Below the pieces are notes generated by a model. The model worked only from the letters and a program-made list of their open reading frames with translations, searched no databases and was not told the origin of the DNA. Made by a program: the position numbers and the translations under genes. Shown one piece after another: positions 1-22,729 of a DNA stretch of 39,324 nucleotides; within the stretch, counting starts at the first letter, position 1; each line of letters begins with the position of its first letter. The stretch is from a virus. Lineage: Duplodnaviria; Heunggongvirae; Uroviricota; Caudoviricetes. The stretch is taken from the IMG/VR virus record IMGVR_UViG_2703718821_000011. One strand, given 5' to 3'.

Positions 1-305
1 TCATGATGAACCTCGGCTAACAAAGTGTTCGCAAGCAGCTGCAAAGCGATCCAGTCCGGTCGTCACCTCTTCTTCGCTGACATTGAGCGCAGGCGCAAAA
101 CGCACCACGTTGCCACCCGCAATCAGTACCATCACGCCTGCTTTCGCCGCTTCCTGAGAGATCTGTTTCGCTTGCCCGGCGTAATCGGCATTCAGTACAC
201 AGCCAATCAGCAAACCTAAGCCGCGAACTTCACTGAACAAACCATAGCGGTGATTAATAGTATTAAGACGCTCAACAAACCAGTCGTGACGCTGTTTAAC
301 GCCAT
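1..305 (-). CDS. astC: Host succinylornithine/acetylornithine aminotransferase (AstC/ArgD family), 3' terminal ~100 codons only; gene interrupted by prophage insertion
   Basis: Minus-strand translation ends ...[96 protein letters not shown], which I recognise as the AstC C-terminus; similarity stops abruptly near nt 305 where phage-end sequence begins. Exact junction uncertain by a few bp. Confidence 0.7.
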
Positions 306-436
306 TAATATAGCGCGGCGATTTTTTTGATACCGATTTGCATTTCATTTGATACTGCTGAAAAACGCCGATACGCAACTTATTTGATACTAAATCGGCG
401 CTTTTCTTTTGAGTTTTAGAATGAGTTTTTAAGCGC
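306..436. repeat. Prophage right-end terminal region with three direct TTTGATAC repeats, candidate transposase end-binding sites
   Basis: TTTGATAC at ~326-333, ~348-355 and ~383-390, between the host junction and the mom stop codon; Mu-family ends carry multiple spaced transposase binding sites. Terminal dinucleotide could not be fixed. Confidence 0.45.
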
Positions 437-1174
437 TCATTCACTCTCTTTCAAACCAGTTTTAACTGTTTGTGGTTTTGGGTAAGGCTGGACTTTGAAT
501 AGCTTTGTGTTGAGGCGTTTTTTGGCCCTCTTGTTCAGAAACCGGATGTAACGAAACTGTCGGAACTTATGAACATTGGCTCTGTCAATATTAGCCCTCA
601 GATGTTCACCTCGTTGTCCGCCTCGTTTAATGGCATTCCTGCAAATCTCGTGATACCACTCGCCATCAAGTTCATAGAATATTGATTCATGGCTGCCTAC
701 ATAATCAAAATTGCTTGCCTGATACACGACACCAAGACAGCCACAACGCTCATCTGCAAACGACTGAACCCACTGTACCTGCGGATAAAGCTGCCTGATT
801 AGCTTGAGCGCGTAACTGATTGCCCTTGATTCGGAGTTTCTCGGCATACAGTCATGCAGCCATAGCCGGTTAAGCTCCATATATTCTCGGTTCTGCGTAC
901 CCGTTACGACGCGTGCACCACTGTTTGGGTTAAGGGCGTAACCCCATTGCATTACGCCAACAAGTTCCCGTTCTGAAAATATGCCCAGATGAAGGTAGGA
1001 GTTATTTACGAAACGGTGGCTGTAATGTTTATTGACGATGACCAGTCTGGCCAGCCAGCAACTTATTGTCTCAACCCGCAACTCACGGGAGCCATAACCA
1101 ACGATATTGTCGTTATAGCGAATAAGTTCAGGCGTGCTGATGATTCGGGATGTGACTTGCTTTCTGTTCCCCAC
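437..1174 (-). CDS. mom: Mom-like DNA modification protein (anti-restriction); true start may be internal to the ORF
   Basis: 245-aa ORF immediately downstream of and overlapping a Com homolog, last gene before the prophage end, exactly as in Mu. Assignment is by position and com linkage, not by recalled sequence identity. Confidence 0.6.
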
Positions 1175-1328
1175 GACAGGATTTCCTTGTGTATGTGGGG
1201 TGCTCTGTGGCGCTCGGAGATGTGATTTGATTGAGGGTTTTACAGCGCGGACATTTTACTTCCAGATAACTGAAACTGGCCCGTGCCAGTAGCTTATTGC
1301 AGTGTCGGCACCGTATGTTTCGATACAT
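1128..1328 (-). CDS. com: Com, zinc-finger translational activator of mom
   Basis: [30 protein letters not shown]... matches the Mu Com pattern (IRCKNCNKLL...IRCPRCK); overlaps the mom 5' end. ORF is open up to 1373, so a longer N-terminus is possible. Confidence 0.75.
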
Positions 1329-1369
1329 GGCCGCATAACCTCCTGCTTTGTTGTTGATGCCTTTCTCAT

Positions 1370-1550
1370 GCAATCGATCGACAAAAACGATCGATTCGAT
1401 TTGTTTAATTGATACAACAAATAGATTGAAAAGTCATCAACAATGATTCAGGTAGGTGATTATTTACTTAAAGAAAACGAAGAGTTAGGTGGTGAAAACG
1501 ATCATAAAATGATCATTTTATTGACTTTTTATATAGTGAAGGTAGGATCG
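1370..1550 (-). promoter_or_regulatory. Candidate mom operon control region: GATC (Dam) site cluster including a perfect 9-bp inverted repeat AATCGATCG-N7-CGATCGATT
   Basis: GATC at ~1376, ~1389, ~1500, ~1511, ~1546 in an AT-rich stretch just upstream of com. In Mu, Pmom is controlled by Dam methylation of upstream GATC sites (OxyR binding) and by C protein. Confidence 0.45.
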
Positions 1551-1914
1551 CGCGTATATGTAGTATGTTTCAAATCAATGGGATACTACATACATAAAGA
1601 GCGACCCAGATAGCGCGAACTATTCTGGGCCGATTTAGACAATTTTGCATCAATGCTTTACTTCGAGCTCGTGGCGTATCCTATGATATTCCCCAGTCTC
1701 CTGTAAAGCAGAGATGCATAAAAAGGAGATCTTTATCATGGATGAAAGAGCCTGTTTGCCCTGCCTGTAAGACTCCCTTACAGCTCATCTATCGCCGTTC
1801 TCGATCTCAAAATGGCAAGACATACAAACCCAAAAATGCTTCCTGTTTCAGGATGCTGATATGTCCTGCCTGTTCTCCCAGGAGGGAAAATACACAAAAC
1901 GTGCATTAACAAAC

Positions 1915-1940
1915 TCACCCGGCAGGGAAACCTGCCGGTC
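1915..1940 (-). terminator. Hairpin (CCGGCAGG-GAAA-CCTGCCGG) immediately downstream of the 81-aa ORF; possible weak terminator
   Basis: Perfect 8-bp stem with 4-nt loop directly after the stop at 1948; downstream U-tract on the minus-strand RNA is poor, so termination efficiency is doubtful. Confidence 0.3.
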
Positions 1941-1947
1941 GGTATTG

Positions 1948-2193
1948 TTACATCATAGTACCGTCAGTTCCGGGCTGAACCGGCTCTGGTTGCTCTACGG
2001 GTTGAGGATCATTTTCCGTGCTGTTTTCAGCCGGAGAACGGCCAACCATTCGGGCCAGCACTTCATCAACATATGCGTCGATTTGTGCCTCAAAATCCTT
2101 GCGAACCTGCGCCTTCAGCACGCGGTTCACTTCTTCAGAATAAAGTGCCTGTTTGACAAGCTCTTCAGTAACCGTGCCTTTAATCTCTGGCAT
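1948..2193 (-). CDS. Hypothetical acidic 81-aa protein (cargo)
   Basis: Protein-like composition (MPEIKGTVTEELVKQALYSEEVNRVLKAQVRK...), AAGGAG Shine-Dalgarno about 7 nt upstream of the ATG. No recognisable domain. Confidence 0.55.
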   Translation of the reverse strand: MPEIKGTVTEELVKQALYSEEVNRVLKAQVRKDFEAQIDAYVDEVLARMVGRSPAENSTENDPQPVEQPEPVQPGTDGTMM

Positions 2194-2228
2194 GAATATT
2201 CTCCTTTTGCAGGTATATTGCCCCGTTA

Positions 2229-2411
2229 TCAGAGCGGGGTCGGGTCGTTTGGGGATGACGGTGCCTGTGCTGTTTTACTGAGTTTTTCAGCTGCCGCATC
2301 ATCAATTTTACGGCGAATATAATTTCTGATGACCTTATAACCGCCGCTCACCAGATATAACGCACTGACCACAGCGCAGAAATAAAGCAGCATTGTATGA
2401 ACGAATGTCAT
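2229..2411 (-). CDS. Hypothetical 60-aa small membrane protein (one N-terminal TM helix, basic juxtamembrane segment)
   Basis: MTFVHTMLLYFCAVVSALYLVSGGYKVIRNYIRRK...; AAGG-type RBS upstream; located in the cargo block. Confidence 0.5.
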   Translation of the reverse strand: MTFVHTMLLYFCAVVSALYLVSGGYKVIRNYIRRKIDDAAAEKLSKTAQAPSSPNDPTPL

Positions 2412-2523
2412 ATAACCTTACCTTTGATATTGACTACATAATTCGTTATCGGGTAAAAACATCGAAGCGACTGATAACCACTCCTTCGGGAGTATTTTTA
2501 TTTTCCTTTATGGGTTAGGTAGC

Positions 2524-2559
2524 TCCCGCCAGCCATATCATGACCGGCGGGATTTTTTT
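2524..2559 (+). terminator. Rho-independent terminator on the plus strand (GC stem TCCCGCC...GGCGGGA followed by T7)
   Basis: Stem-loop followed by TTTTTTT on the plus strand only; overlaps the stop codon of the minus-strand esterase gene. It would stop rightward transcription entering the esterase gene antisense. Confidence 0.55.
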
Positions 2560-4567
2560 ATTCTGTTACCGCTTTTTTCACTTCCACCACAATGCTGTCA
2601 ATCAGCACCGGGTAAGTTGCATTTTTGGTGATATCCGTTACGCGGAGTTTGTCCACCGGGAAAGTTCCTACTGGTGACTGCGTCAGGGTAAACGCGGCAC
2701 CATCCTGACCATCAATAACCGGAATAACCTGAAGGCTGTTATTTCCTGCAAAACGGAAGGCCAGCGTATGCCATTCATTATCAAATGCACCAAAGGTTCC
2801 CAGTTTCTGGTTATTTGTTGCCACTTTTGCATTGTGGTACATCACATTCAGGTCTTTTGCGTCTGTCTGGATGTAGAACGATGCCAGCAGATTATTCCCT
2901 GCATCCCCTGTCAGGGTGACACCCTGCGGCAGAGAGGAAACCGGCCAGTAAAGCGCCATGACATACTGGTTTGCCACCAGGTCGCCAGGTACTTTAAAAC
3001 GACAACTGATTAAACCACCATTTTTCAGCAGTTCAGCACCAGTACCGGCATCATGAGCCAGATACCAGGATGATTTACCTGTTTCCTTGGTCAGTTTCAT
3101 TGCCTTACCACCTGTGCCTCCTGCATCACTGATAATTTCAGCTTTACCGCCAGCCGGCTCCCAGCCCTGGGCTTTCAGATTTCCTTCTGACTCACTGACA
3201 CGGTAAGACAGCAGTGTTGTGGTTACTGCTTCAGTTTCAGAAGATGGAACATCGGCTTTTACTGTGGTTCGCCCTGCATGAGTCAGAACAGCCGTGGCCA
3301 GACGGTCAGAAATAATACCCCGGCGCGCCCAGGCACTGAAATGGCTGGCCCGGTCCGCAGATGTCCAGGTAGCGGCACTGTTACGCCACGTTGAGCCGTA
3401 ATAACCAATGGATTCAATATCCGGGTCTTCTGCCGGATTGTTGGTGGGTACATTCACGCCATTTTCATCTGTCATTAATGGAACGAAATGAATGTTTTTA
3501 TCTGTTTTGTTTTTGTAGCCGCCATAGATTGCCTGGTATGCTGGTTCATTTTTCTGTTTCCAGAAATACGTGGTATCGCCACAAATCCACGGAACGCCAG
3601 CAGCACTGCCACCGGTACACTGTTCCGCCTGTTCAGCCAGGTCTGCGCGGAATTTTTCCACCATCGCCAGAAACAGCGCAGAATGCTCCGTCGGCTTCGC
3701 ATCAATATCAAACTCGCCCTGCATCCACACCACAGCAAGCAGGCGGTTTTTCGGGTTCTTCGCCAGTGCCGCTTTTGTCCGGCTGATTAAGTCCTTATAC
3801 AGCGGCTTATCCACACCCCAGCGGGCTGAGTCCTCTGAAGCACCCGTGCTGTCACTGTACGTGCCGTCAGCACCCGCCGTGAATGCAGAACCACCACGGC
3901 AGCAGGGAACCAGCAGAATCCCCGCATCTGCCGGAATAAACGGCAGCAGTTTTTTGGCAATGTGAAGCCCCTGACCCACGGTGCCATATTGCCCTTTAGC
4001 CACATCCGCTTTCGGGTGATTTTTTCCACTCATATCCTGCACATCATGCAGACAGTGGTCGGCCAGAATGATGTCGTTATACTGACAGGCTTTACCTCCC
4101 GGCGTGACTGTACTGCGACGGGCTAACTGCATAATACGCGGTTCGGGGCGGTCATATGTCTCCGGCAGTGGCAGACCTTCACCGTAAGCCATACCGTTTG
4201 ACTGACCAGCAAGAACCACCACGTAATACCAGGAAGGGGAGCTGGAAGCAGTTTCATTTCCTGACGGACGGGTATGTGTTTCAGCATTATCCCAGTCTGA
4301 CGGTTCAGCAGTACCGGCAACATCAGCACTTAACGGAATGACCGCACCAATACCCGCTCCGGTAATTTCCACACTCGGATCACCGGATACTGGCCTTACC
4401 CACAGGCAATCCCGTGTATTAAAACTGATGAGACAGTCAGCAAATGTCATTCCTCCTTTTGTTTCGGCCGGAGGAAAGGGAGCCTCAAGAAATGCCGCTG
4501 TACCACCGGAAACTTTAACAGTAAAGTTTCCGGGCATTGATGATAGTTGAACCCATTTGGACGTCAT
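2558..4567 (-). CDS. Cargo protein: SASA/SGNH-family carbohydrate esterase (sialate O-acetylesterase-like) with an N-terminal ~110-aa domain and a C-terminal ~250-aa beta-rich domain
   Basis: Motifs VVVLAGQSNGMAYG (GQSN block with catalytic Ser) and VVWMQGEFD (WxQGExD block) are hallmarks of the SASA esterase family. No obvious signal peptide. Sits between gin and com-mom, where Mu has no gene. Confidence 0.65.
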   Translation of the reverse strand: MTSKWVQLSSMPGNFTVKVSGGTAAFLEAPFPPAETKGGMTFADCLISFNTRDCLWVRPVSGDPSVEITGAGIGAVIPLSADVAGTAEPSDWDNAETHTRPSGNETASSSPSWYYVVVLAGQSNGMAYGEGLPLPETYDRPEPRIMQLARRSTVTPGGKACQYNDIILADHCLHDVQDMSGKNHPKADVAKGQYGTVGQGLHIAKKLLPFIPADAGILLVPCCRGGSAFTAGADGTYSDSTGASEDSARWGVDKPLYKDLISRTKAALAKNPKNRLLAVVWMQGEFDIDAKPTEHSALFLAMVEKFRADLAEQAEQCTGGSAAGVPWICGDTTYFWKQKNEPAYQAIYGGYKNKTDKNIHFVPLMTDENGVNVPTNNPAEDPDIESIGYYGSTWRNSAATWTSADRASHFSAWARRGIISDRLATAVLTHAGRTTVKADVPSSETEAVTTTLLSYRVSESEGNLKAQGWEPAGGKAEIISDAGGTGGKAMKLTKETGKSSWYLAHDAGTGAELLKNGGLISCRFKVPGDLVANQYVMALYWPVSSLPQGVTLTGDAGNNLLASFYIQTDAKDLNVMYHNAKVATNNQKLGTFGAFDNEWHTLAFRFAGNNSLQVIPVIDGQDGAAFTLTQSPVGTFPVDKLRVTDITKNATYPVLIDSIVVEVKKAVTE

Positions 4568-4666
4568 AATAATCAGCCTGTTCCTGAATAAACTGAATTA
4601 TCATATCCACAGACCGATAAACGCCATTTTGCGTTAATTCAGTAAAGGCCCAACAAAGAGAGCGTC

Positions 4667-5227
4667 TTATTTTTCCGAAACGCTCGCAGGATAATAACGA
4701 TAAAGGGTTGAAAGACCGATATCAAAAATAAGTGCCACCTGTCTTCGACTGACACCCCCGGCCAGTAAACGCCCGACCTGCTCGTATTGTTCCTGCGTGA
4801 GACGGCGGGGTCTGCCGCCGGTTCGTCCCCTTTCACGGGCAGCTGCAAGACCAGCCCGTGTCCGTTCGACAATTAATTCACGCTCCATTTCTGCCAGCGC
4901 ACCCATTATGTGAAAAAAGAAGCGCCCCATGGGGGTTGACGTATCAATGTTGTCAGTAAGACTACGAAAATTTATCCCCTGTTGCTGTAATTCATCTGTC
5001 AGCGCAACAAGGTGGCGCATACTGCGCCCCAGCCTGTCCAGTTTCCAGACCATCAGCGTGTCACCGGGTTTTAGTTTCTTCAGTGCCCGCTTCAGTCCCG
5101 GCCGCTGTGTCGTTTTACCACTCATTTTGTCTTCAAAAATCTGCTCACATCCTGCACATTCCAGCGCATTTCTTTGTAAACCGGTGTTCTGGTCATTTGT
5201 TGATACGCGTATATAGCCAATCAGCAT
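4667..5227 (-). CDS. gin: Gin/Hin/Pin-family serine recombinase (DNA invertase)
   Basis: MLIGYIRVSTNDQNTGLQ... N-terminal resolvase/invertase catalytic motif, C-terminal HTH; adjacent to the gix-flanked segment and transcribed away from it, as in Mu. Confidence 0.85.
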   Translation of the reverse strand: MLIGYIRVSTNDQNTGLQRNALECAGCEQIFEDKMSGKTTQRPGLKRALKKLKPGDTLMVWKLDRLGRSMRHLVALTDELQQQGINFRSLTDNIDTSTPMGRFFFHIMGALAEMERELIVERTRAGLAAARERGRTGGRPRRLTQEQYEQVGRLLAGGVSRRQVALIFDIGLSTLYRYYPASVSEK

Positions 5228-5281
5228 GTATTTACCTTCCTTAAAAAGAGGTGGAAAAGCCTTTTAAAGTAGATATACGGC

Positions 5282-5307
5282 ATCCCTGAAACCTCGGTTT
5301 ACGGGAT
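5282..5307. other. gix-like crossover site (left), 26-bp imperfect palindrome ATCCCTGAAACCTCGGTTTACGGGAT
   Basis: Core AAACCTCGGTTTAC matches the Mu gix / Salmonella hix consensus as I recall it (TTCCTGTAAACCGAGGTTTTGGATAA, reverse complement). Confidence 0.6.
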
Positions 5308-5661
5308 ACGGTAAACAGGGCCGCGAATGCCCTGCCATCAAACGGTACGGCTGTTGCAGCAAGCAGGCTGGCAAATGCCCGCAGAATCAATGGTGTCGCC
5401 TTTGACGGCACGCAGGATATAAACATTACGTCAGGAATGCCGGAATCAACGGCCAATCAGCGTTATGTTACAGGGGTAAGACTGGGAGCGCAGGCATTAA
5501 GCGGCGGACTGGAATATAATTACTCCCTGTCATCAGGAAATGTGATTACCGGTTTTAAGACTGACGGAGACTGGGAAATGCGTGGTGGTGATGACCGTGT
5601 TTATTACAGACAGATACAATATTGTATTAATGGGCATTGGGTATCCGCTGCAAGTATTTAA
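5290..5661 (+). CDS. Silent alternative tail-fibre C-terminal cassette (S'v-like), promoterless in this orientation; would fuse to the constant part of S after inversion
   Basis: Plus-strand frame open from the stop at ~5287 encodes NLGLRDTVNRAANALPS...INITSGMPESTANQRYV..., paralogous to the expressed S segment NLGLRETVNKAADALPS...INITSGMTQSTADGRYV.... Confidence 0.55.
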   Translation, partial: NLGLRDTVNRAANALPSNGTAVAASRLANARRINGVAFDGTQDINITSGMPESTANQRYVTGVRLGAQALSGGLEYNYSLSSGNVITGFKTDGDWEMRGGDDRVYYRQIQYCINGHWVSAASI

Positions 5662-5731
5662 TTAACGGGGGCATAGCACACAGCAGCCAGCATCTGAAAT
5701 ATGCGTTATTTCAGACAAGCATTGCCTGTAT

Positions 5732-6304
5732 ATGGCGATAGTATTATTCCTGTTTTTATCATTGATTTACATGGTGATGTTTATGCAACTGATTAATGTC
5801 AAACGATATTACCCGAAAGACAAACCCTATGGTGAGGATGTTCAGTATTTCCAGAGTGAGGACGGAAGGGATTTTTATGAATCTATCCCGCTTTTTACAA
5901 AGAAATACAAACTCTGTATTTCGCCTGTAACGGGTATTATCTGCTCTGTTGCTGAAGATGTCTCTGCTTTATATCCGGCAGGTTTTACTGTTGTTGAAGT
6001 GGACGAACTGCCGGAAGGTGTGAATATTGACGGTAACTGGCAGTTTTCTGATGGCCTGATATCAAAGGTGCCGGTAAACTGGAAGACGGTTGCTGAAAAG
6101 CGTCGCTCATCGCTGCTCCAGGAAGCCAACGAAACCGTGGATGACTGGAAAACAGAATTAAAACTGGACATGATTAGCGATGAAAATAAATTACAGCTGA
6201 CGCGCTGGATGGCGTATATCCGACAGCTTAAAGAAATGCACTTTAATGATATTGCCAGTGAGGGGCATTACCAGGCGATTCCCTGGCCGGAAAAACCGGA
6301 ATAA
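5732..6304 (+). CDS. Tail fibre assembly protein (U/U'-type chaperone), inside the invertible segment; likely true start near 5783
   Basis: Follows the silent fibre cassette on the same strand; C-terminus ...IPWPEKPE is typical of tail-fibre assembly proteins; position matches the Mu G-segment U/U' genes. Confidence 0.6.
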   Translation: MAIVLFLFLSLIYMVMFMQLINVKRYYPKDKPYGEDVQYFQSEDGRDFYESIPLFTKKYKLCISPVTGIICSVAEDVSALYPAGFTVVEVDELPEGVNIDGNWQFSDGLISKVPVNWKTVAEKRRSSLLQEANETVDDWKTELKLDMISDENKLQLTRWMAYIRQLKEMHFNDIASEGHYQAIPWPEKPE

Positions 6305-20802: not shown

Positions 20803-21276
20803 TTAAGGCGTTTCTGTGGCCTTTTTAAAGCGTTTTCTGATTTCGTCCATGATCTCCTGCTCTGCCACCTGATCAAAGCCCATATACGGACGTGCACCAA
20901 TGGCCGCCGGTCCAGGCGGCATACCTGGCAGGCCCCCCCACTGATGAATGGCCGCATAAGGCTCATTTGATCCAATCAGCGCCCAGGTATCGCCATAATC
21001 CGTGGTCAGGCGTCGGGCCAGATCGCCGTTCAGCGTCAGGATTTTGCCGGGCATGTATCCCTTACGGGTACGCCACTTGCGGTAAGGATCTGACCAGTCA
21101 TGCCAGCGTTCGCCGTCCGGCTCTTTTTCCTGTTCAAACGCCATTTCTGACGATGACAGAAGGCTGGACGCCACACTGCGGGTCAGGTCTTTTCCACCAC
21201 CCACAAACTGAAGCCGGGCAAAGACCCGCTGGAGACGCGTAACGTCAACAACGACAGCGGCATCAATGGATGACAT
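20803..21276 (-). CDS. Virion morphogenesis protein (Mu gp31, G)
   Basis: 157 aa between the F-like gene and the protease gene. Confidence 0.65.
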   Translation of the reverse strand: MSSIDAAVVVDVTRLQRVFARLQFVGGGKDLTRSVASSLLSSSEMAFEQEKEPDGERWHDWSDPYRKWRTRKGYMPGKILTLNGDLARRLTTDYGDTWALIGSNEPYAAIHQWGGLPGMPPGPAAIGARPYMGFDQVAEQEIMDEIRKRFKKATETP

Positions 21277-21397
21277 ATTGCCTCCGCATAAAGGATGAAT
21301 ATAAAATAAACAGGCGGTCAGTGTACGCTTAACTGGTAAAGTCGGTGCCTGCCTCCGGGTGGATCATGTATGCGGGTTCGACCCCCGCCACTGACCG

Positions 21398-22729
21398 TTA
21401 ATCAATATCTCCTTCCAGTACCTCAAGCATTCCGCCCCGGATATCCGATTTCAGCTTATCCATATTGATAACCCGGTAAGCATTAACAATCACATCCAGT
21501 TTATCCGGCTGACGCTTCAGGCTGTACGGTGCATTAACGGCAATCTGCACACTGCCATCCTGATTTTCCACGATATACATCAGATTGTTGTGCCGTTTGT
21601 CCCACAGTACCGCTTTTGGCCTTGCCAGCATTGCCGGTAAGCGCCCGAAATCCTCCGGCGTCAGGGCGATACCGTCATTCTGATGTTTCATGCTGTCCGC
21701 ATGGAGCACATTTTTACCGCTCATCGCCAGCAGGCGGGCCGGTGGCGTTCCCGTCCGGCTTTCCACCGCCTGCGCAATGCTTTCGGTCATAAAGCCCAGC
21801 GTGCGGATATCGTTACCGCCTCGCCGGGTTTTCATGATGTTTTTTGCCCAGATGCGGAACGCCAGTTGCCGCTCCGGGCTGTTGTTCATCTCCTGAACCA
21901 CCATTTCCCGCAGCGCCGGGCTTTTCACCTCGATCAGTTTACGGATCAGCGCCTGGTCTGTGCCGAACGCCGCCGAACCGGGGTTATATGACCAGCCCAC
22001 ATCCGGTGTCATGGTTCTGGTGCCATCTGAATATGTGGTCACCGGCATTTCTCTGACTTCCCCGGTCTGCTTATCCACGCCAGCCTCAACATTGCGGGTG
22101 GAGAGATGATCCTGACCGGATGAAACGGATAACCCCATCGCATCCAGACGGGCCTGAGACAATGGCCGGACACGGCAGCGACAGTTCCAGCCATTGGGCG
22201 GGTAGTGTGTATTCCAGAACGGATCGTCATAGCGGAATACCAGACCGTTAAGGGCGGAATGCGCCGGGCGGGTGCGGCTGTCCATCACCGCCACATACTG
22301 CCAGAACGGATGCGTGTCCGTGTTGTTCATCATCTGCGTGTAACGCCCGGCATTGTAAGCCACACGGGTGTTCACGTTGTAAATCAGCGCCAGACGGCGG
22401 GGACTGCCCAGCTGCACTTCTTCCGCGTTACCGGCACTGTCCACCACAATCTGTTTTCCCCACCATCCCAGCTTTTGCAGGCGGGGTGTCAGTGTGCGGA
22501 TAAATGCTTTCTGTGAAATCCCCTCATCAACAGCACGCTGCACTTCCGCCTGTAGTGTGGTCAGTACGTCCAGGCGTGCCACTTTTGCCGCCGTGAATGA
22601 ACGGGCATGAACATCTGCGTTTGTTTCGAACCAGTTCCAGCTGATATGCGCCCCTTTGGCGCGGAAGTATGCCACCGCCTCTTTTGAGGGAAGCGTGGCG
22701 GCATAACCTAAATCAATCCCCTGTGCCAT
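21398..22729 (-). CDS. Head morphogenesis protein (Mu gp30, F)
   Basis: 443 aa immediately downstream of the portal gene. Confidence 0.75.
   Translation of the reverse strand: MAQGIDLGYAATLPSKEAVAYFRAKGAHISWNWFETNADVHARSFTAAKVARLDVLTTLQAEVQRAVDEGISQKAFIRTLTPRLQKLGWWGKQIVVDSAGNAEEVQLGSPRRLALIYNVNTRVAYNAGRYTQMMNNTDTHPFWQYVAVMDSRTRPAHSALNGLVFRYDDPFWNTHYPPNGWNCRCRVRPLSQARLDAMGLSVSSGQDHLSTRNVEAGVDKQTGEVREMPVTTYSDGTRTMTPDVGWSYNPGSAAFGTDQALIRKLIEVKSPALREMVVQEMNNSPERQLAFRIWAKNIMKTRRGGNDIRTLGFMTESIAQAVESRTGTPPARLLAMSGKNVLHADSMKHQNDGIALTPEDFGRLPAMLARPKAVLWDKRHNNLMYIVENQDGSVQIAVNAPYSLKRQPDKLDVIVNAYRVINMDKLKSDIRGGMLEVLEGDID

Follow-up and report, generated by a model that had tools for sequence, protein, structure and literature searches.

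The stretch of DNA studied here, called the window below, is the whole of IMG/VR virus record IMGVR_UViG_2703718821_000011 (39,324 nucleotides, Caudoviricetes), a Mu-like transposable prophage of the Sakai Sp18 type inserted in argD. A first-pass annotation, made from the sequence alone, had linked a plus-strand terminator at ~2524-2559 to the AT-rich region at 1400-1900 and proposed a transcript antisense to the small cargo genes lying between them. We consider it likely that two independent units stand here side by side, namely a short small RNA (sRNA) gene, which is EcOnc37 of Escherichia coli O157:H7 Sakai, and a com-mom control region with a divergent gene for a putative zinc-ribbon protein. 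A kilobase-long antisense transcript is not required, and is possible as a minor read-through product running from 1555 to 2559. The sRNA gene sits on the plus strand in the 146-bp spacer between an esterase gene and a DUF1378 gene, and comprises the following elements.

2430-2435, plus strand: -35-like TTGACT, opposite the ribosome-binding region of the DUF1378 gene
2454-2459, plus strand: -10-like TAAAAA, separated from TTGACT by an 18-nt spacer; predicted start at ~2465-2467
2466-2559, plus strand: predicted sRNA of ~94 nt, with its 3' end in the U-run 2553-2559
2480-2510, plus strand: internal hairpin ACUCC-UUCG-GGAGU (2480-2493) and U-rich stretch AUUUUUAUUUUCCUUUA
2524-2559, plus strand: intrinsic terminator, stem-loop 2524-2552 and U7 2553-2559, abutting and overlapping the esterase stop codon

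The Sakai chromosome is 100% identical to the window over 2412-2560 (NC_002695.2 5077475-5077623). EcOnc37 was listed in its prophage Sp18 at 5077340-5077410 on the '-' strand of NC_002695.1, in 5 of 5 sets of Hfq-bound RNA obtained by cross-linking and analysis of cDNA (CRAC), together with the prediction of a Rho-independent terminator (Tree et al. 2014, Mol Cell, Table S2), and the ECs4993-ECs4994 spacer ranks 57 among the Hfq-bound intergenic regions of that study. Conversion with the offset of +127 between versions.1 and.2, measured on ECs4994 and ECs4997, places EcOnc37 at window ~2496-2566 on the plus strand, the Sakai '-' strand corresponding here to the '+' strand of the window. The coordinates obtained by cross-linking, ligation and sequencing of hybrids (CLASH) imply an offset of +125, and a cross-check on AsxR/stx2B gave ~+136 at 1.27 Mb; with +127, the 3' edge of the CRAC peak falls at ~2566, 7 nt beyond the U-run. 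In the RNase E-CLASH data, chimeras were reported in which the EcOnc37 halves TTTTCCTTTATGGGTTAGGTAGCTCCCGCCAGCCATATC and TTTATGGGTTAGGTAGCTCCCGCCAGCCA are joined to ECs2098 and ECs4627 RNA, and EcOnc37 is listed 40 times in the file of sRNA-mRNA hybrids (Waters et al. 2017, EMBO J). These read halves correspond exactly to window 2501-2539 on the plus strand. Sequence, strand and position all match, and the window sRNA is thus EcOnc37 itself, already catalogued: an RNA of the plus strand has been shown in O157 Sakai to exist, to bind Hfq and RNase E and to hybridise with mRNAs. The proposal of a plus-strand regulatory RNA, which probably ends at the terminator, was in this way supported by published data. 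The DNA is the same in the two prophages, which differ in their host insertion (sorM in Sakai, argD here), and among 5,426 complete E. coli genomes 170 contain the locus, nearly all with an identity of 99% or more. The name EcOnc37 occurred in no main text of the literature searched.

The terminator was present as originally described. Its inverted repeat (2524-2536/2540-2552) has 13-nt arms which are 85% complementary and are separated by a 3-nt loop; the stem core is CCCGCC/GGCGGG, and a folding energy of -14 kcal/mol was obtained for the 45 nt preceding the T-run. The T7 tract (2553-2559) overlaps the TAA stop codon (2558-2560) of the minus-strand esterase open reading frame (ORF). On the plus strand the GC-rich stem-loop thus stands directly before a run of at least six U, as in intrinsic terminators. 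On the minus strand A7 precedes the hairpin and AGCTACC follows it; since there is no U-run, the hairpin is terminator-shaped for the plus strand only. A generic terminator scan missed the 2524-2552 hairpin, whose loop amounts to 15 nt once the A-C mismatches are counted, and reported a second plus-strand terminator-like site upstream, at 2480-2504, consisting of the hairpin 2480-2493 ACTCCTTCGGGAGT (ACTCC-TTCG-GGAGT) followed by ATTTTTATTTT. Positions 1-5000 contained 12 terminator-like sites, against 5.4 ± 2.2 expected. An internal hairpin with a U-rich stretch, together with a terminator bearing a long U-tail, is the classical Hfq-binding module. The internal hairpin and U-rich stretch of the window sRNA are probably such a module and possibly also a weak early terminator.

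To place this layout among relatives, 63 loci encoding DUF1378 relatives were collected from IMG/VR and the antisense strand of the upstream spacer was read. All 16 distinct esterase-linked spacers (16/16) carried on this strand a -35-like TTGACA, TTGACT or TTGACG (TTTACT in locus L064), a spacer of 17-18 nt, variable in sequence, and TAAAAA (TAAAAC in L063), followed ~70-100 nt past the TAAAAA by a GC-rich hairpin and T5-8 at the esterase stop codon (T5 in L064 only). The terminator stems vary between families (CCCGCC, CCCGCCAGTCAA, GCCGCCGG, GACCGCCGG, TCCCGCCAG, AGCCAGCG), as do the bodies and the loops, and a T-run on the sense side of the hairpin was seen in none of the esterase-linked spacers examined. 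The internal hairpin survives a register-shifting double change in L009 and is longer in L007 and L014. Both the promoter-like element and the terminator were absent from 4 of 4 DUF1378 loci lacking an upstream esterase gene. The same layout occurs in diverged esterase spacers of lambdoid prophages, at the places where PasA and PasC, EcOnc33 and EcOnc51 lie. The CLASH data also include reads of EcOnc33 (L034-type unit), EcOnc51 (PasC-like) and EcOnc35 (PasA-like) (Waters et al. 2017), and the whole positional class is therefore expressed. Moreover, the promoter/terminator module was found in phages devoid of the 1400-1900 region, which speaks against a tie between the terminator and the AT-rich region. 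We infer that the sRNA is transcribed from its own promoter, TTGACT-18-TAAAAA, and the sequence comparison suggests that it arrived in the Mu-like phage within a lambdoid esterase/DUF1378/DUF826 module. The link initially drawn between the terminator and a transcript from 1400-1900 was thus not retained, the RNA being ~94 nt long with its own conserved promoter-like element at 2430-2459. Nor is this RNA antisense to the small cargo genes as had been proposed: it is antisense to the esterase/DUF1378 intercistronic stretch and not to coding sequences.

In the mechanism that we propose, the UUCG hairpin, the U-rich linker and the U7 tail would form the Hfq-binding module, and the single-stranded stretch CCUUUAUGGGUUAGGUAGC (~2505-2523) would be the pairing region. 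The sRNA would act in trans on host or prophage mRNAs. Given its full complementarity to the esterase-DUF1378 junction of the sense mRNA, it may act on that mRNA in cis as well.

The second unit occupies the AT-rich region and the sequence that follows it on the plus strand, with these features.

1329-1520, minus strand: com-mom leader and promoter region, with a GATC palindrome, a GATC pair and two candidate promoter cores
1521-1548, plus strand: sigma-70-type promoter TTGACT-16-TAGGAT, divergent from com-mom; predicted start at ~1555
1557-1721, plus strand: structured part of a ~185-nt leader counted from ~1555, with inverted repeats IR1 and IR2 and a long-range helix
1738-1770, plus strand: 10-codon ORF, MDERACLPCL and stop, with the Shine-Dalgarno (SD) sequence AAGGAG at 1723-1728
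1742-1909, plus strand: putative zinc-ribbon ORF of 55 amino acids (CPAC...CPAC), behind the same AAGGAG at 1723-1728
1918-1937, both strands: hairpin with an 8-bp GC stem, CCGGCAGG-GAAA-CCUGCCGG, between the convergent zinc-ribbon ORF (plus) and DUF826 gene (minus)

The GC content is 0.295 at 1401-1600 and 0.385 at 1501-1700, against ~0.5 around. The first-pass annotation had read this part as an AT-rich spacer of 450 bp; it is AT-rich indeed, but it is not an empty spacer, as it holds the com-mom control region and the divergent gene. Its minus strand must hold the com-mom promoter. GATC sites lie at 1376, 1389, 1500, 1511 and 1546, that is five in 174 bp compared with one per 307 bp window-wide, and a GATC palindrome, AATCGATCG-N7-CGATCGATT, spans 1372-1396. 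Two candidate mom promoter cores were recognised, a T-run with TAAGTA at 1477-1465 and TTTTC with CAATCT at ~1433-1424, the latter in a block (1330-1460) conserved in all relatives. A TTTTC run before the -10 is common to the candidate mom promoters and the lys/I late promoters and is too weak to fix the mom start; beyond this run, no C-box common to the candidate mom and lys/I late promoters of this phage was found. The palindrome is itself bracketed by a 14-nt inverted repeat, 93% complementary (1351-1364/1430-1443). It lies in the com leader and not upstream of the promoter, a position which recalls the agn43 arrangement.

On the plus strand, the hexamers of the divergent promoter, TTGACT (1521-1526) and TAGGAT (1543-1548), are kept among relatives (TACGAT in M18, TAAGAT in L096), whereas the 16-nt spacer differs. 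The -10 is overlapped by one GATC (1546-1549), and a further GATC is found 7 nt upstream of the -35. The perfect 10-bp inverted repeat announced at ~1557-1593 was found at 1557-1566/1583-1592 (IR1), with 16 nt between the arms; the arms are conserved and the loop varies, the left arm being deleted in M18. IR2 (1605-1613/1620-1629) exists in 4-5 stem versions (window, Sakai, L073, M18, L096), all of which pair. The long-range helix (1643-1661/1703-1721) ends beside the SD sequence and shows a C-G pair changed to U-A in M18 and has a G-U pair in L096. RNAalifold analysis of six variants returned 47 pairs, 6 of them with compensatory changes, and several G-U pairs of the leader are legal only on the plus strand. 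These changes are suggestive of a structured leader, no more strongly than that. Three relatives (L086, L088, L092) carry in the leader a tandem duplication of ~80 nt (window ~1604-1665), covering IR2 and the left arm of the long-range helix. The coding part behind the leader varies: a zinc ribbon in the window, a 68-amino-acid ORF in the 102651 type and a 175-amino-acid ORF in M18. In L093 the whole plus-strand promoter-leader unit is missing. The variable ORF and this absence make the unit look like an insertable promoter-leader-ORF cassette. In 102651 (L005 4356-4761), between DUF826 and com, the 68-amino-acid plus-strand ORF, which starts with MDK like the zinc-ribbon ORF, forms a convergent pair overlapping at the 3' ends with a minus-strand ORF of 66/78 amino acids, and L093 (1392-1628) has only the minus-strand member of this pair.

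The zinc-ribbon ORF bears its CPAC knuckles at residues 6-9 and 41-44, and the two copies of CCTGCCTGT that had been noticed, at 1760 and 1865, encode both of them (PAC motifs). This sequence occurs three times in the window, compared with 0.36 expected, and 0 of 100 shuffles reached three. An exhaustive HMMER search retrieved a homologue of 53 amino acids (MDKEARLCPSC...CPKC; 43% identity, E 1.9e-6), encoded divergently from com in other Mu-like prophages. The single-sequence AlphaFold model is a modest one, with strands at 14-19 and 35-40 and a mean predicted local distance difference test (pLDDT) score of 69. The best Pfam match was Trm112p, at 17.2 bits, below the cut-off of 22, and no Zn_ribbon_Com match was obtained in Pfam. 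The AAGGAG reported in front of a 10-codon ORF at ~1738 is present (1723-1728, ATG at 1738); it stands 9 nt from ATG1738 and 13 nt from ATG1742. In relatives of the L073 type, a 1-nt deletion of G1744 puts ATG1738 in frame with the zinc ribbon (MDKEPVCPAC...CPAC), while in the window and in Sakai the extra G1744 cuts the frame of ATG1738 to 10 codons and the ORF can restart at ATG1742. From this comparison ATG1738 appears to be the ancestral start codon, which the insertion of one nucleotide has separated from the zinc-ribbon frame; the ORF is kept under two different start arrangements. The hairpin behind it (1918-1937; -22.5 and -22.1 kcal/mol, z -4.5 and -4.1 on the two strands) is probably a bidirectional terminator with imperfect U-tails. 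The sequence features listed in the first-pass annotation were all found; its statement that all credible genes nearby are on the minus strand was wrong, given the 55-amino-acid plus-strand ORF with a 43% identical homologue in the same place and a plus-strand coding sequence (CDS) annotated by the NCBI Prokaryotic Genome Annotation Pipeline (PGAP).

Several observations weigh against an autonomous sRNA gene. EcOnc37 was published as a peak and a list of hybrids, without a mapped 5' end, and its Northern entry is blank in Table S2. The -10-like TAAAAA lacks the usual final T. A permissive Rfam search of 1-6000 gave chance-level matches only, and in local alignment the similarity of the sRNA to PasA and PasC equalled that of shuffles (z 0.1 and 0.4), the L015-type unit being the only one clearly homologous in the same test (z 15.9). 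PasA has a 5' end suspected by its authors to arise by processing, and one EcOnc51 CLASH read spans the presumed promoter spacer of the EcOnc51 unit; on these grounds the window RNA could be cut from a longer plus-strand transcript. Such a transcript would originate within the AT-rich region, the promoter at 1521-1548 being one possible source, pass the hairpin 1918-1937, run antisense through DUF826 and DUF1378 and silence the cargo; the terminators at 2480-2504 and 2524-2559 would stop it, and processing of its 3' end would yield EcOnc37. The promoter is conserved, the imperfect U-tail of the hairpin (UCGGUAUUGUU) makes read-through plausible, and the generic scan found no plus-strand terminator-like site between 1396 and 2480. 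We nevertheless hold this model to be unlikely. The terminator and the promoter-like element occur in lambdoid prophages that have no 1400-1900 unit, L093 has the cargo genes without the plus-strand promoter unit, sRNAs of lambdoid prophages appear on Northern blots at 79-85 nt, the Hfq-CRAC peak is limited to ~70 nt within the spacer, and ECs4996 was not found in the CRAC and CLASH tables. The hairpin might also act in the sense mRNA, where it would stabilise the 3' end or serve as a processing site behind the esterase gene, the T-run opposite being incidental. It does pair better there, with 13 bp including two G-U (-35 kcal/mol, z -5.6), than on the plus strand, where two A-C mismatches occur (z -2.1); the position of the A-C mismatch is the same in the L015 type, and an intramolecular hybrid of the sense hairpin (ECs4993 3' untranslated region) is present in the CLASH data, which also speaks against the sRNA reading. 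The use of the G-U versus A-C asymmetry to designate the functional strand was rejected, the sole informative position being common to two related families and counting as one event. A stabiliser needs no A5-8 run just 5' of it on the sense strand, yet this run is found in every family (interrupted in L064) while stems and loops change; a U-run never follows the hairpin on the sense side, and Hfq and RNase E bind a plus-strand RNA that probably ends at this hairpin. A sense role as the explanation of the hairpin is therefore improbable in our opinion, although a sense-strand role and a plus-strand terminator role are not mutually exclusive.

The divergent zinc-ribbon gene has to be weighed against other readings of the same DNA. 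The spacing of 13 nt between the SD sequence and ATG1742 is long, the leader fold has a slightly unfavourable covariation term (+2.36, from six sequences only), and the relatives do not pinpoint the mom start, since L093 lacks one candidate core together with the whole plus-strand unit and the other core has a better -10 (TATATT) in L096; all three count against our interpretation of the region. PGAP annotates a plus-strand CDS at 1443-1909 as a frameshifted hypothetical gene, and Sakai ECs_4996 is open there over 154 amino acids, so that the 'spacer' could be the decaying coding sequence of a single protein of ~154 amino acids, frameshifted in the window. The frame is also open in L073-type relatives (135 amino acids) and the difference between two indel patterns in 1590-1640 is a multiple of 3. 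This explanation is improbable to us: the C-terminal third of the 135-amino-acid product of the commonest relatives is read in a different frame, two changes of frame occur in a single contig, the window lineage carries a frameshift, and M18, with 72% nucleotide identity, has a stop at codon 17 and no annotated ORF. Conservation moreover falls in nucleotide blocks which match the promoter hexamers and the helices, the N-terminal part has no Pfam domain, and the distant homologue has 53 amino acids and starts at the MDKE position. ECs_4996 and the 'frameshifted' PGAP CDS are thus probably annotation artefacts, in which a chance ORF through the promoter and leader is fused to a real gene of 55/56 amino acids. 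Leader-peptide control, in which translation of the 10-codon ORF would govern the downstream transcript or the overlapping ORF, appears very improbable. The 9-nt spacing to ATG1738 is better than the 13 nt to ATG1742 and the two ORFs overlap out of frame, but the short ORF is made by the G1744 insertion and exists only in lineages with G1744, ATG1738 being the zinc-ribbon start in the L073 type and in the 43% identical homologue. No alternative terminator/antiterminator pair was seen after the short ORF, and no plus-strand terminator follows in the scan.

A broader scheme, to which we give little weight, would make of the plus-strand promoter and the com-mom promoter one back-to-back, methylation-sensitive switch, linked to EcOnc37 by read-through. 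RNA polymerase on the plus-strand promoter would in the lysogen keep the toxic mom silent and express the swappable cargo ORF through the leader. The zinc-ribbon protein could feed back on com/mom RNA, which is conceivable because Com is also a small zinc-finger RNA binder. Some transcript could pass the hairpin 1918-1937 and stop at the EcOnc37 terminators, linking the two units.

The two units described above, the sRNA gene and the com-mom region with its divergent gene, lie among the following features of the prophage, whose forward direction corresponds to the minus strand of the window.

1 to ~307: 3' end of argD; the Sp18-type match (E. coli O157:H7 prophage) begins at ~308
437-1174, minus strand: mom (Pfam Mom, 2.6e-77)
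1128-1328, minus strand: com (Pfam Zn_ribbon_Com, 1.9e-12)
1948-2193, minus strand: DUF826 gene (Pfam)
2229-2411, minus strand: DUF1378 gene (Pfam)
2558-4567, or 2558-4597 with the PGAP start, minus strand: sialate-O-acetylesterase gene of the nanS-p type (Pfam SASA and DUF6645)
1948-4597, minus strand: cargo module esterase/DUF1378/DUF826, of lambdoid origin
4667-5227: Gin invertase gene (Pfam)

The esterase/DUF1378/DUF826 order is also found after stx2AB in Shiga toxin (Stx) phages, with 84.5% identity over 2569-3241 (3' end of the esterase gene). A 98.7% identical prophage which maps onto the window (98-99% identical) has an annotated Mor/C-family activator gene immediately ahead of its lysozyme gene. 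The same phage type was observed in argD (window), sorM (Sakai), a sulfatase gene (ECP19-798) and a motility gene (102651), as is expected for insertion by transposition, and the prophage end at ~308-420 bears repeated TTTGATAC motifs which are probably transposase sites. ARAGORN detected no tRNA or tmRNA in the whole window; in a 97-99% identical prophage (L072 17911-17990; window ~21270-21410), the PGAP annotation has a 'tRNA-OTHER' where the head-morphogenesis gene is followed by the virion-morphogenesis gene. In several related Mu-like prophages a C5 DNA methylase (PF00145) stands after com in place of mom (L075 165-1217, L093 1-1053, L096 1398-2450), and the modification enzyme has apparently been swapped there under the same Com-controlled leader. 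In published Sakai tables of RNA sequencing (RNA-seq) and ribosome profiling (RIBOseq), com (ECs4997) has high translatome values, 81.7 and 727.1 in adjacent columns, and DUF1378 (ECs4994) has 30.8 and 54.1 in adjacent columns, both being classed 'real'. Judging from these values, the lysogen seems to express both the com-mom leader and the cargo genes.

A feature picked from the raw sequence thus proved to be a real regulatory RNA gene, matched to the published and uncharacterised EcOnc37. Current understanding is not overturned, and the finding is mostly explained by the known sRNA and by the com-mom region with its divergent gene; the EcOnc37 entry gains a predicted promoter, predicted ends and a fold. 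For ECs_4996 and the PGAP CDS, we suggest re-annotation as a promoter and leader followed by a zinc-ribbon gene of 55/56 amino acids.

Mu mom control shares with the window a com-mom pair, a Mor/C-type activator, a GATC cluster, a T-run before an AAG-type -10 and a promoter directed away from mom. Late promoters of Mu are known to have a T-run in their spacer. The Dam/OxyR region of Pmom contains the palindrome AATCGATCG-N8-GATCGATT, to be compared with AATCGATCG-N7-CGATCGATT in the window, and the series GATC..TTATG..ACCACCTAAC..TTTTCTT-TAAGTA (1514-1465) parallels GATCGATTATG..ACCACACTCAAC..TTTTTT-AAGAT of Mu, both likenesses having been read by eye. The control region extends over ~400 bp in the window and ~95 bp in Mu, and the Mu-like palindrome lies here in the com leader, downstream of either candidate start. 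In Mu, gin abuts the mom promoter, whereas 3.3 kb of cargo are inserted between gin and com in the window. Mu possesses momP2, a divergent promoter which overlaps and competes with Pmom (PMC3378877). The plus-strand promoter of the window is placed like momP2 and, by analogy, may compete with the mom promoter; unlike that of Mu, it has near-consensus hexamers and drives a structured leader and a protein gene.

AsxR and AgvB (Tree et al. 2014) resemble the window sRNA in being short, Hfq-bound, ended by a terminator, convergent to cargo genes and located in the late region of O157 prophages. They differ in being encoded between stx2B and the esterase gene, where they flank the latter on its opposite side, and in having a length of 51-60 nt with a conserved 3' block of ~42 nt; their core motif TCTCATGCTNTTGCCCGAAC, taken from published reads, was not found in the window with up to 3 mismatches allowed.

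The closest architecture is that of PasA and PasC of enteropathogenic E. coli (EPEC) E2348/69, whose counterparts in enterohaemorrhagic E. coli (EHEC) are EcOnc35/51/52 (Pearl Mizrahi et al. 2021; Zhu, Shabalina and Storz 2026 preprint). PasA is a Northern-verified, Hfq-dependent sRNA of 85 nt on the '-' strand (743499-743415), in '> < >' orientation, with a minor form of 236 nt ending at 743264. The esterase gene of E2348/69 ends at 743265, and the minor form ends at a second hairpin with T7 abutting the stop codon, which belongs to a PasC-like unit with its own TTGACA-N18-GAAAAA. Like PasA and PasC, the window sRNA is directly downstream of a SASA esterase gene and convergent with it, on the lysis-gene side; it has a similar predicted size (80-95 nt) with a 3' intrinsic terminator and poly-U, is Hfq-associated (for EcOnc37 from the published CRAC data of an identical locus), and has upstream a promoter-like element of the TTGACA-N18-A-rich kind, one unit ending exactly at the esterase stop. 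PasA and PasC form two tandem units next to a holin gene in a lambdoid carrier, whereas the window has one unit next to DUF1378 in a Mu-like transposable carrier. The PasA/PasC family was delimited by blastn, and from the comparison made here the window sRNA is an analogue of PasA/PasC in position and architecture but does not belong to their family by sequence. EcOnc37 thereby joins a positional class of esterase-adjacent convergent sRNAs (PasA/PasC, EcOnc33/35/51), held together by a common architecture and not by sequence, which accompany the nanS-p cargo module even when it moves into a transposable phage of the Mu-like kind.

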